Below the pieces are notes generated by a model. It saw nothing but the letters and a program-made list of their open reading frames with translations. It had not been told where the DNA came from and ran no database searches. Made by a program: the position numbers and the translations under genes. Below are positions 1 to 4,706 of a stretch of 16,351 nt of DNA, piece after piece (the first letter of the stretch is position 1; every line of letters starts with the position of its first letter). Location: the IMG/VR virus record IMGVR_UViG_2851933302_000006; one strand, 5' to 3'. The DNA comes from a virus (lineage: Duplodnaviria > Heunggongvirae > Uroviricota > Caudoviricetes).

Positions 1-1266
1 ATGAAGCTCAGCGCCAGACAGGTCGAGACCGCAAAACCAAAAGATAAAACCTACAAAATGGCCGATGGCGGCGGTTTGTACCTTGAGGTTTCGGCCAAAG
101 GATCAAAATATTGGCGTATGAAATACAGACGCCCCTCTGACAAAAAAGAGGATCGCCTCGCTTTTGGTGTTTGGCCTACTGTGACGCTTGCTCAGGCAAG
201 AGCAAAGCGCGATGAAGCCAAAAAGCTATTAGTGCAGGGCATTGATCCAAAAGCCGAACAGAAAGAGGCTCAGGCCGAGAACTCGGGGGCATATACTTTC
301 GAAACCATTGCTCGTGAATGGCATGCCAGCAACAAGCGCTGGAGTGAAGACCATCGATCTCGCGTTCTTCGATATCTTGAGCTTTATATCTTCCCTCATA
401 TTGGTTCGTCCGATATTCGTCTACTCAAAACCAGCCACCTGTTAGCCCCAATTAAAAAAGTTGACGCTAGTGGAAAACACGACGTCGCTCAGCGCCTGCA
501 ACAGCGTGTAACGGCCATTATGCGTTATGCTGTACAGAACGATTACATTGACTCGAATCCGGCCAGTGATATGGCTGGTGCGCTATCTACAACCAAAGTG
601 CGACATTACCCTGCGTTACCTTCCTGCCGGTTACCTGAGTTTCTTGCACGTCTCGCTGCATATCGTGGTCGTGTAATGACACGGATCGCAGTCGAGCTTT
701 CCTTACTGACTTTTGTGCGTTCCAGTGAGTTACGTTTCGCGCGTTGGAATGAGTTCGACTTCGATAAAGCCCTTTGGCGCGTACCTGCAAAGCGGGAGGA
801 AATTAACGGGGTGCGTTACTCGTATCGTGGTATGAAGATGAAAGAGGAGCATATTGTTCCTCTTAGTCGTCAGGCGATGAATTTGTTAGGCCAGTTGAAG
901 CAGATTAGTGGTGATAAGAAACTGCTTTTCCCGGGCGATCATGACGCAACTAAGGTTATGAGTGAAAACACAGTAAACAACGCATTACGGGCGATGGGAT
1001 ATGACACTAAAACCGAAGTTTGTGGGCATGGATTTAGAACGATGGCGCGTGGTGCACTGGGGGAGTCGGGGCTATGGAGCGATGATGCGATAGAGCGTCA
1101 GTTAAGCCATACAGAACGAAATAATGTACGCGCGGCTTATATCCATACTTCTGAGCATTTGGACGAACGTCGATTGATGGTACAGTGGTGGGCTGATTAT
1201 TTGGAAGAGAATAAACTAAGAATGATAACACCATTTGATTACGGAAAAATATCTAATATAAAGTGA
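1..1266 (+). CDS. int: P4-family tyrosine integrase. The ORF starts at window base 1, so the true start could lie upstream.
   Basis: 421-aa ORF. The N-terminal arm-binding-like region (LYLEV...KYWRMKYR) and a C-terminal catalytic region with HGFRTMARG (HxxR) and a conserved Tyr (RAAYIHTSE) are typical of phage integrases. It sits at the edge of the element. Confidence 0.9.
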   Translation: MKLSARQVETAKPKDKTYKMADGGGLYLEVSAKGSKYWRMKYRRPSDKKEDRLAFGVWPTVTLAQARAKRDEAKKLLVQGIDPKAEQKEAQAENSGAYTFETIAREWHASNKRWSEDHRSRVLRYLELYIFPHIGSSDIRLLKTSHLLAPIKKVDASGKHDVAQRLQQRVTAIMRYAVQNDYIDSNPASDMAGALSTTKVRHYPALPSCRLPEFLARLAAYRGRVMTRIAVELSLLTFVRSSELRFARWNEFDFDKALWRVPAKREEINGVRYSYRGMKMKEEHIVPLSRQAMNLLGQLKQISGDKKLLFPGDHDATKVMSENTVNNALRAMGYDTKTEVCGHGFRTMARGALGESGLWSDDAIERQLSHTERNNVRAAYIHTSEHLDERRLMVQWWADYLEENKLRMITPFDYGKISNIK

Positions 1267-2741: not shown

Positions 2742-2915
2742 ATTATCCTCCTTATCTGCCCTGGTATCTGTATATAAAAACAGTATAACATCAATTTAAG
2801 CATCAAAGAAGATAATAAAAATCAATTAAATCATAATGATGCCTGCGTTTTTAAAGTGTGGGCTTTTGGAGGCGGGTAATGTACGCGCGTATTCCCTGGA
2901 GATTCCATTTAAAAG

Positions 2916-2931
2916 GCTACGTATGTAGCCT
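2916..2931 (-). terminator. Candidate intrinsic terminator downstream of the 103-aa gene.
   Basis: Palindrome GGCTAC-GTAT-GTAGCC, followed on the minus strand by TTTTAAAT. Confidence 0.4.
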
Positions 2932-2938
2932 CATGTAT

Positions 2939-3250
2939 TTAAGAGTACTGGCCCCAATCTCTGGCAATAAACCAGTTTGGCGTCCAGCTAACAAACTCTT
3001 GCGGATGAAAGTTTTGAGGGATTACAACTAGAGATACAATCGCTTCAGGTTGCAAACTGAGAACATGACTTTTTTTATCGCTTTCGTAATCCCAAAAATG
3101 GAATCTGTCACTTTTATCATGAGCTCTACGACTAGGACCGAAGTCCATAGGCGCAGTTAATCTTGTGATTGTCGCGTTATCTTCTTTTGAATAAAAAGTT
3201 AGCTGAATTTTTAAACAACTATGAATGGCATCAATGAATTTATCGCGCAT
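2939..3250 (-). CDS. Hypothetical 103-aa protein, orphan cargo gene adjacent to cos.
   Basis: Clean ORF with an AAGGAG RBS about 5 nt upstream of the ATG (minus strand). Composition is intermediate. No recognisable motif. Confidence 0.6.
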   Translation of the reverse strand: MRDKFIDAIHSCLKIQLTFYSKEDNATITRLTAPMDFGPSRRAHDKSDRFHFWDYESDKKSHVLSLQPEAIVSLVVIPQNFHPQEFVSWTPNWFIARDWGQYS

Positions 3251-3376
3251 ACGTTCTCCTTTGTAGTTACTAAATTAATATCCTCTATTGATAGATTATT
3301 GTGTGTGATCATTGCGGCATTTAATAAAACGTAATGAGTTCATTGTATTTTATTTATGTTATCAGCCTTGCGCGCA

Positions 3377-3395
3377 GTGCTTTCCCCGCCACGCC
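3377..3395 (-). other. cos site (19-nt cohesive-end sequence of the P2/P4 type).
   Basis: The + strand reads GTGCTTTCCCCGCCACGCC. This is the reverse complement of the recalled P2/P4 cohesive end GGCGAGGCGGGGAAAGCAC with one mismatch, and it lies immediately beyond psu as in P4. Confidence 0.7.
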
Positions 3396-3495
3396 CGCCC
3401 GCTTTGCAGGGCGGTTTTAATGCAGTTGTACTGACACGCTCAGACTGCGCCGGGAATGGCGCGGTCTGCAGAAAATGAGGCAGGGAAACGCATGC

Positions 3496-3530
3496 AAAGC
3501 CATGCACCTTATCGATGCATGGCTTTTTTC
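3496..3530. terminator. Hairpin with T-run between cos and psu; candidate terminator.
   Basis: AAAGCCATGCA...TGCATGGCTTTTTTC: a palindromic stem with a T6 run on the + strand and a weaker U-tract on the minus strand. Confidence 0.5.
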
Positions 3531-3559: not shown

Positions 3560-4132
3560 TTACACAGACTGACGTGATGCCAGTTGCGCACTTTTACGCG
3601 AAAAAATCATGTTCTGCGCAGGAGTGAATTTTTCACGGCTGTCATCCACCGAAGCCGCGTCAGGCCTGAATCCGATGGTCGTTAAAATGTCGCTATCCTG
3701 TGCGGAATAATTAATTTTTTCCCCCTTCGCAAGCCAGGACAGAAGGGCTTCACGCAGGGCATCTGTGGCACGCTGTATGGCACAGTTTCGGGCAATGGCC
3801 GTCAGCTCACTGTAGCCCATCAGCTCCGGTGCCAGTGCCGCCGCCAGTGCTGTGCCGTGCTGCTGCATAAAATCATTCAGCCGGTCGCGGATGCTGATGT
3901 GCTGAACGGCTTCATGCGAACGAATATAACGACCGGCGGCCTGATTCACCTGCCATTTTCTGACTTCGATAATATTGCGTAATTCGTCCAGGCGACTGAC
4001 GTTTCTGCCTTCTCCTGACAGAAGCCGCAGATATTCCTGTTCGGCCGCAGCCAGCTCATTTTTGCGTTGCAGCCATGCTGCTTTGTTATTCTGACAGGTG
4101 TCAAAGGCCTGCTGTAAGGCTGTGCTTTCCAT
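3560..4132 (-). CDS. psu: Polarity suppression protein Psu (capsid decoration / Rho antagonist).
   Basis: 190 aa, the same length as recalled for P4 Psu. It is the last gene of the sid-delta-psu operon, next to cos. Confidence 0.88.
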   Translation of the reverse strand: MESTALQQAFDTCQNNKAAWLQRKNELAAAEQEYLRLLSGEGRNVSRLDELRNIIEVRKWQVNQAAGRYIRSHEAVQHISIRDRLNDFMQQHGTALAAALAPELMGYSELTAIARNCAIQRATDALREALLSWLAKGEKINYSAQDSDILTTIGFRPDAASVDDSREKFTPAQNMIFSRKSAQLASRQSV

Positions 4133-4205: not shown

Positions 4206-4706
4206 TCATTCCAGACGCAGCGAATATGATTGTGTTTTTAACCGTACTGGCGGCAGTTCCTGTTTTTCATGCAGGCGTTCTGCCAGTTCGTCCGGCGTGA
4301 CCGGGCGGACAATGAAACGGTTGATGGTCTGAAGCGTTTTAAACACCAGACCACAGCCCGGATCCGTGCACACATAAAAACGCTCGGTGACTTCCTGAGA
4401 CAGACGCCGCGATGTTCTTGACAGTGCAAGGCCTTTACATCTCCGACAACAATATCCGGTAACAAGCATTCTTTTCGGGCGTTTCATACTGCCGGAGGCT
4501 GACGTCAGTGAATCGCGGTATCTCTGTTTGCCTGAAATGTATTCCATTCCTGAATCTTTACTGTCAGAGAAAAAGCTTTCACTCGCTTCAAATGTCGCAG
4601 AGCAATAAATATTCCGGCACTGTGCAATCATTATCTTGGTGCCATCGTCCATGAAATGTGCGCGGCGGGTGTGAGCAACATGTCCACACGACGGGCAGTA
4701 AATCAT
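4206..4706 (-). CDS. delta: Delta late transcriptional activator (tandem Ogr-type zinc finger).
   Basis: 166 aa with two Cys4 zinc-finger units (CPSCG...C..IYC and CCRRCKG...CTDPGCG), the duplicated Ogr-like architecture. Confidence 0.9.
   Translation of the reverse strand: MIYCPSCGHVAHTRRAHFMDDGTKIMIAQCRNIYCSATFEASESFFSDSKDSGMEYISGKQRYRDSLTSASGSMKRPKRMLVTGYCCRRCKGLALSRTSRRLSQEVTERFYVCTDPGCGLVFKTLQTINRFIVRPVTPDELAERLHEKQELPPVRLKTQSYSLRLE

Follow-up and report, generated by a model that had tools for sequence, protein, structure and literature searches.

A minimal protein with a predicted WYL fold from the WYL-Kiwa cassette, cargo of the cos-proximal hotspot in a P4-like satellite, belongs to a widespread family most often found next to ABC-type ATPases

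The characterized WYL regulators, such as BrxR, CapW, DriD and PafBC, all combine the WYL domain with an N-terminal wHTH domain and dimerize through a WCX domain (PMC11662680). Binding of ssDNA has been reported for CapW, DriD and PafBC (for CapW, see PMC11662680), and in CapW, the ssDNA pocket is lined by a serine of beta1, both arginines of the RWHVR motif and one further arginine (PMC11662680). The closest described counterpart of the locus analyzed here is system 14 of the P4 hotspot systems of Rousset et al. 2022, where protein 1, denoted 'WYL/DUF4868' in Table S1B, has exactly the 103-aa sequence considered below, and KwaA and KwaB are likewise identical to those encoded in our sequence (PMC9122126). 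System 14 was found 93 times among 5,251 loci; PF13280.8 was assigned to the 103-aa protein in Table S1B, and a one-line domain note states that the WYL protein 'perhaps regulates' Kiwa (PMC9122126). The three genes were cloned together with the native upstream region as pFR79, 'WYL-Kiwa'; this entry comes after the heading of Table S2B, 'additional tested systems', and is absent from the seven validated P4 systems (PMC9122126), so that in the parts of the paper covered here, no phenotype is attached to the cassette.

The missing HTH and the wider family are not discussed in the passages of Rousset et al. 2022 covered here (PMC9122126). The paper on Domainator counts the identical three-CDS hotspot simply as 'Kiwa', and the passages of the Kiwa mechanism paper that we consulted make no mention of a third Kiwa gene. 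Searches of titles, abstracts and passages for WP_001205027, for OLD combined with WYL, and for KwaA or KwaB combined with WYL returned nothing relevant beyond Rousset et al. 2022, and the RefSeq name of WP_001205027 is 'hypothetical protein'. The identity of the gene as the WYL component of the WYL-Kiwa hotspot cassette is thus already known. Here we show that the gene belongs to a conserved family, which we denote mini-WYL, and that across bacterial phyla, its members most frequently open a tightly spaced operon of two genes, the second of which encodes an ABC-type ATPase effector.

By gene content, the entire stretch of 16,351 nucleotides analyzed here (hereafter, the window) is a P4-like satellite prophage that contains psu, cos, int, delta, the ORF in the position of sid and the alpha primase. 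At its far end, the hotspot is bounded by a P4-type tyrosine integrase gene (1-1266, plus strand; Pfam Arm-DNA-bind_3, Phage_int_M and Phage_integrase), which is followed, on the minus strand, by kwaB, encoding the DUF4868 Kiwa effector (1324-2217; PADLOC KwaB PDLC00222, E 6.5e-117, and Pfam KwaB), kwaA, encoding the Kiwa component with four TM segments (2226-2741; PADLOC KwaA PDLC00216, E 1.6e-76), and the mini-WYL gene for a stand-alone WYL-fold protein of 103 aa, WP_001205027 (2939-3250). The P2/P4-type cos cohesive-end sequence of 19 nt, GGCGTGGCGGGGAAAGCAC, lies at 3377-3395 on the minus strand with one mismatch to GGCGAGGCGGGGAAAGCAC; this is the single match in the window, where none is expected by chance. 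On the other side of cos, psu (3560-4132, minus strand; Pfam Psu, E 1.3e-88) forms the near boundary, followed by delta (4206-4706) and the ORF in the sid position. Other genes in the window encode an Ash-family protein, a DUF5375 protein and the alpha primase-helicase of 777 aa. The mini-WYL gene is therefore cargo of the P4 cos-proximal defence hotspot between psu/cos and int, and the window and system 14 (PMC9122126) represent the same system in the same position between psu/cos and int, with no difference. The setting proposed in the earlier note, a gene beside anti-phage defence in a satellite hotspot, between a two-gene operon and cos, is borne out, with kwaA and kwaB located downstream on the same strand.

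Several additional features of the window lie outside the cassette. A perfect G6/C8 hairpin (GGGGGGATTCCCCCCCC, 1292-1309), probably a bidirectional terminator, separates the convergent integrase and kwaB genes and lies near one end of the insert cloned by Rousset et al. In the psu-cos interval, a GC-rich hairpin (GCCATGCA...TGCATGGC, 3493-3530) with TTTTTT after it on the plus strand resembles a terminator for transcription entering from the cos side. Past the alpha primase gene, the segment 10587-15216, which may be a second cargo region or a flanking island, contains three ORFs: the first encodes 111 aa; the second, with a TTG start, encodes 658 aa (11688-13664, plus strand) and has no Pfam or PADLOC match; and the convergent third encodes an HNH_2 protein of 309 aa (14287-15216, minus strand) that matches the PADLOC HNH and type IV restriction models.

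The mini-WYL ORF (2939-3250, minus strand) starts with ATG, 126 nt from cos, and encodes a product of 103 aa. The Shine-Dalgarno sequence AAGGAG (3256-3261, minus strand), read directly from the sequence, is located 5 nt upstream of the ATG, so that both the gene and the ribosome-binding site recognized previously are confirmed. The AT-rich spacer of 126 nt (3251-3376) that separates cos from the ATG is the presumed promoter region; a promoter scan detected no sigma-70-like site with at least 9 of 12 matching positions on its minus strand. A hairpin 6 nt past the stop codon (2913-2932, minus strand; eight pairs with an AUAC tetraloop), between the mini-WYL gene and kwaA, is a weak terminator candidate: it is followed by UUAAAU, its U tract is short (UUUU, then AAAU), the folding energy of -13.8 kcal/mol (z = -1.6) was equalled in 13 of 200 shuffled sequences, and the terminator scan flagged it solely on the plus strand. 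Thus, the hairpin described in the earlier note exists, but its strength as a terminator does not hold up, and because there is no sigma-70-like site and the hairpin is only weakly terminator-like, the separate transcription unit with its own promoter still has to be inferred. The start of kwaA is 197 nt downstream of the mini-WYL gene on the same strand.

Far from being the orphan that it had been taken for, this is a real and conserved gene. A word-indexed search yielded 91 homologues with 43-99% identity, nearly all of 103-110 aa; a scan of one genome per species identified 98 loci encoding relatives; and 404 clusters were recovered from 1.84 billion representatives by exhaustive profile searching. 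The 98 loci span Gammaproteobacteria, Bacteroidota, Cyanobacteria, Actinomycetota, Bacillota, Acidobacteriota, Armatimonadota, Saccharibacteria and other taxa, and between very distant phyla, family members share 40-65% identity. In an alignment of 34 sequences, 18 columns are invariant, including S21, R30, P34, R49, H51, W89, W93, R97 and W99, with W53 present in no fewer than 90% of the sequences. The variant in E. coli strain S1 is 92.9% identical to the window gene in DNA and 96% in protein, as expected under purifying selection. The protein has no match in Pfam, NCBIfam, PADLOC or PHROGs. The median pI of the family is 6.5, that is, near neutral.

The earlier note held that nothing assigned a function to this gene; structure prediction, however, gives the protein a WYL ligand-binding fold, in line with the published annotation of the same sequence. 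In the AF2 model (pLDDT 93.7), a single N-terminal helix of 10 residues precedes an Sm-like barrel of five strands, after which comes a conserved tail rich in tryptophan, and the predicted fold superposes on solved WYL domains. Given the Sm-like barrel, one could think of a Rho inhibitor of the Rof/YaeO type complementing Psu, but Rof is not the closest structural match, and we consider this scenario scarcely credible. Sequence similarity to WYL domains is faint: the Pfam WYL model PF13280 did not match the window protein at E values up to 10 and hence did not reach the gathering threshold, it matched 3 of the 34 family members with a best E value of 0.042, and a profile search of PDB sequences with mini-WYL returned a chance match alone (E 1.4). 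We also compared the mini-WYL profile, using hhalign, with a profile built from relatives of the pEFER BrxR. The resulting alignment of 83 columns (P = 0.0036, with a probability of only 9%, a suggestive score that is not significant alone) coincides exactly with the BrxR WYL domain (residues 138-221), in a register that agrees with the structure; the same comparison starting from single sequences was not significant.

In this register, mini-WYL S21, R30 and P34 align with BrxR S156, R164 and P168, and R49-F-H51-F-W53 aligns with R177-W-H-V-R181, so that H51 is equivalent to H179 and W53 to R181. The WYL signature residues are thus present, namely, the beta1 serine (S21), the R-x3-P motif of beta2 (R30 and P34), R49 and H51, all of which map to the face that binds ssDNA in CapW and BrxR. 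The family has its own variant of the RWHVR strand, R-[FY]-H-[FL]-W, where the near-invariant W53 replaces the second arginine of BrxR and CapW, and the conserved tail with W89, W93, R97 and W99 sets mini-WYL apart from these regulators. Two of the four residues that contact ssDNA in CapW are not conserved, that is, about half of the pocket is kept.

The predicted structure also differs from BrxR, CapW, DriD and PafBC in lacking both accessory domains. Only the 10-residue helix precedes the barrel, leaving no N-terminal wHTH, and about 23 residues follow it, compared to about 90 after the WYL domain of BrxR, leaving no WCX. The best-scoring 150 of the 404 clusters consist of proteins of 63-190 aa, mostly 100-110, and therefore, none of these is fused to a full wHTH-WCX regulator. 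As far as the structure model and the lengths of these 150 representatives indicate, the mini-WYL family contains neither an HTH nor a WCX domain, a point not previously reported. WYL1, the Cas13d accessory protein, is much larger (about 390 aa, with extra domains) and shows no sequence relationship to mini-WYL beyond the fold.

Among E. coli genomes, the whole mini-WYL gene always accompanies Kiwa: 31 complete genomes carry it, kwaAB is present in every one, and the cassette is nearly invariant. This link was observed in one E. coli P4 lineage only. Searches with the window KwaA and KwaB using phmmer matched at only two loci, both from E. coli, and detected no Kiwa near the best 80 of the 98 homologue loci outside E. 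coli, where a divergent Kiwa could escape such a search. Kiwa was accordingly dropped as a candidate general partner of mini-WYL, and mini-WYL does not qualify as a conserved third Kiwa component, even with KwaA and KwaB next door in the window.

Kiwa also occurs with a damaged mini-WYL gene. In at least three E. coli genomes (about six when those with a damaged kwaB are included), kwaAB is 92-93% identical to that of the window, and the WYL gene is reduced to its final 73 nt (window 2939-3011). These kwaB-kwaA copies (L111 5001-6710, L112 5001-6693 and L003 6001-6073 in our numbering of loci, all on E. coli chromosomes) are located within an ICE-like island encoding ArdC, DUF1281, an N6-methylase and PilI, adjoin a P4-type integrase pseudogene, and look like a decaying captured fragment of a satellite hotspot. 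Since intact kwaAB persists with the truncated gene, Kiwa does not strictly require WYL. Three further E. coli genomes retain only about 105 nt (window 2907-3011). The WYL gene is immediately preceded by an IS1 copy in FORC_042 and S1 (L001 6355-7052 and L002 6368-7051); in FORC_042, this element separates the WYL gene from psu/cos, and in S1, the remaining satellite is absent beyond IS1.

To characterize the partners of mini-WYL elsewhere, we counted species-level loci among the best 80 of the 98, including MAG contigs of uncertain origin. In about 30 of these 80 loci, mini-WYL is operonic with ABC-type ATPases, namely, OLD-family nucleases, PDC-S06 and PDC-S46. In about 21 of the 80, a gene for an OLD-type ATPase with the same orientation overlaps mini-WYL or lies no more than 60 nt away. 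This partner, mostly immediately downstream of the mini-WYL gene, is a protein of about 600 aa that combines AAA_15 with an OLD-like TOPRIM domain and matches the PADLOC Old, GajA and AriA models. OLD-linked loci come from Actinomycetota, Armatimonadota, Acidobacteriota, Bacillota, Bacteroidota, Saccharimonadia (CPR) and Gammaproteobacteria, and in the family tree, OLD-linked members are scattered, so that the linkage is either old or recurrent. At other loci, the partners are AAA_13 ATPases with end-to-end matches to PDC-S06 or PDC-S46; the PDC-S06 subtype PDLC04889 directly follows mini-WYL in Photobacterium, at two Clostridium loci and on an Arcobacter plasmid. Where mini-WYL precedes unrelated effectors, there are gaps of 3-50 nt, and at two loci (L021 and L041), the mini-WYL gene is downstream of its partner.

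Thus, OLD nucleases (P2 Old, GajA and class 1 OLD) and the PDC-S06 and PDC-S46 ATPases are the commonest immediate operon partners of mini-WYL; none of them is present in the hotspot of the window, where Kiwa is the neighbour instead. No small WYL partner of these ATPases is described in the papers found, as far as the parts covered here extend, and relative to the searched papers, the pairing is new.

On the Arcobacter plasmid CP134847 (L116 1217-12215), an apparent defence island encodes an SbcD-like protein, an SbcC-like protein (1193 aa), mini-WYL, the PDC-S06 ATPase, whose gene overlaps the WYL gene by 4 nt, DUF2779, a NERD-domain protein and a dGTPase. In three distant genomes, a gene resembling class II ribonucleotide reductase is close to the mini-WYL homologue (L068 4938-9593, L040 8281-11901 and L008 9840-12239), and in the first of these, a dCTP-deaminase-like gene also follows the homologue; this proximity may be due to chance.

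This gene order bears on the published suggestion that the WYL protein regulates Kiwa. In its explicit form, mini-WYL would be a transcriptional regulator of kwaAB similar to BrxR and CapW, repressing or activating a promoter in the 197-nt gap and released by ssDNA. Such a role would be compatible with the predicted WYL fold, with the location of the gene upstream of a defence operon on the same strand, as in the case of brxR and capW, and with the length of the intergenic region ahead of kwaA, which leaves room for a promoter and an operator; the proposal of Rousset et al., as worded in the domain note cited above, points in the same direction (PMC9122126). However, elsewhere, the family precedes unrelated effectors at 3-50 nt, without room for an operator, and is downstream of the partner at the two loci mentioned above. 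Furthermore, the absence of the HTH and WCX domains used by all characterized WYL regulators, together with the lack of HTH-fused relatives among the best-scoring 150 of the 404 representatives, argues against a repressor in the style of BrxR or CapW. We therefore consider control of kwaAB by mini-WYL to be unlikely, as we do a DNA-bound repressor or activator in general.

Beyond ATPase operons, mini-WYL is found in a variety of mobile elements. In a P4-like satellite of Y. enterocolitica, delta is directly followed by a 66% identical mini-WYL gene of the same orientation, an arrangement shared with the window; the neighbour of mini-WYL in this hotspot is a DUF2971/PDC-S31 gene, not Kiwa, and the P2/P4 cos sequence was not found in this Yersinia locus with up to three mismatches. 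On prophage contigs from IMG/VR (L101, L103-L107 and L110), a 55% identical homologue is encoded one or two genes after a CI-like S24 repressor and in the same orientation, with Bet/RecT or Sak4 recombination genes further along, in a position like that of rexAB of phage lambda. In E. coli, a copy with 45-50% identity is one of two to five annotated genes on five plasmids of 2.8-4.3 kb, and in the three examined (L113, NZ_AP027752; L114, CP056848; L115, NZ_OY754355), mini-WYL is followed by an unannotated protein of 237 or 172 aa without Pfam or PADLOC matches. We considered the 237-aa protein as a candidate Rep of these plasmids and dropped it: it is unannotated and was found on only seven plasmids and is therefore probably not a common Rep.

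With satellites, prophages and such small plasmids as carriers, a counter-defence or self-protection role also comes to mind, whereby mini-WYL, a domain devoid of an output domain, as would befit a sponge, would sequester the ssDNA or nucleotide signal that derepresses host defences controlled by BrxR or CapW, or blunt host immunity in other ways. Stand-alone WYL proteins of 71-98 aa indeed occur in phage proteomes (BFVD), but tblastn detected no mini-WYL match in 50,697 sequenced phage genomes, the prophage copies occupy the usual site of defence genes expressed in lysogeny rather than that of early lytic genes, and about one third of the sampled species loci pair mini-WYL tightly with OLD or AAA_13 ATPases of the defence type. 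An anti-defence role is accordingly less likely, and we regard it as improbable.

In Pantoea, an 87% identical homologue resides in an island that also encodes AbiE and a type I RM system, apparently alone, with gaps of 340-660 nt on either side. Solitary copies of this kind, along with the small size of the gene, its own ribosome-binding site and its location in a defence hotspot, are what an autonomous single-gene toxin or abortive-infection factor, the guess offered in the earlier note, would predict. We found no support for it: the predicted ligand-binding barrel comes with neither a catalytic nor a membrane domain, the cross-phylum gene order points to a partner protein, and toxicity of the pFR79 clone, which includes the native upstream region, is not mentioned in the passages of Rousset et al. 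covered here (PMC9122126). An autonomous toxin is, in our assessment, very unlikely.

The explanation that we prefer, tentatively, is that this minimal WYL-fold protein of the hotspot cargo is a ligand-sensing accessory subunit that contacts a neighbouring defence effector directly. The conserved top face of the WYL barrel argues for a ligand-binding role, and the tight, phylogenetically broad pairing with ABC-type ATPases argues for a partner protein. By analogy with CapW, DriD and PafBC, mini-WYL would bind a small nucleic-acid-derived ligand, either ssDNA or a nucleotide. Since there is no HTH to bind duplex DNA, it would pass the signal to the effector through protein-protein contact rather than act as a classical repressor, and we infer such direct modulation. 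In the P4 satellite, the partner may be Kiwa or a factor acting in trans.

Several findings speak against this ligand-sensing subunit. The near-neutral pI of the family is not typical of a nucleic-acid binder, and the sequence support for WYL is weak, as indicated by both the PF13280 and the hhalign scores. Two of the four ssDNA contacts of CapW are not retained, and the published cassette comes with no phenotype. In the window, the 197-nt gap and the hairpin disfavour tight translational coupling with kwaA. The link to Kiwa is limited to a single E. coli P4 lineage, and kwaAB is intact in spite of the truncated WYL gene. More specifically, and with greater reserve, we put forward the possibility that mini-WYL is a dedicated trans-acting sensor subunit that gates the OLD, PDC-S06 and PDC-S46 ATPases and, possibly, Kiwa.

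For the window itself, the earlier reading is corrected: what seemed an unassignable orphan is the WYL component of a published cassette, an ordinary finding in itself. If mini-WYL is a sensing subunit, this would account for the detection of infection by some OLD-family and PDC candidate systems and would provide a testable handle on why the cloned WYL-Kiwa is outside the validated systems. In the P4 satellite, mini-WYL would give a membrane-triggered system a further input, ssDNA or a nucleotide. Several systems treated as single-gene, as we take the 'S' in the PADLOC candidate names PDC-S06 and PDC-S46 to mean, would then be two-component sensor-effector systems, and WYL domains would signal via protein-protein contact besides transcription. 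The interest lies in the family, a predicted WYL sensor without the usual HTH that repeatedly precedes OLD-type and AAA_13 ATPases.
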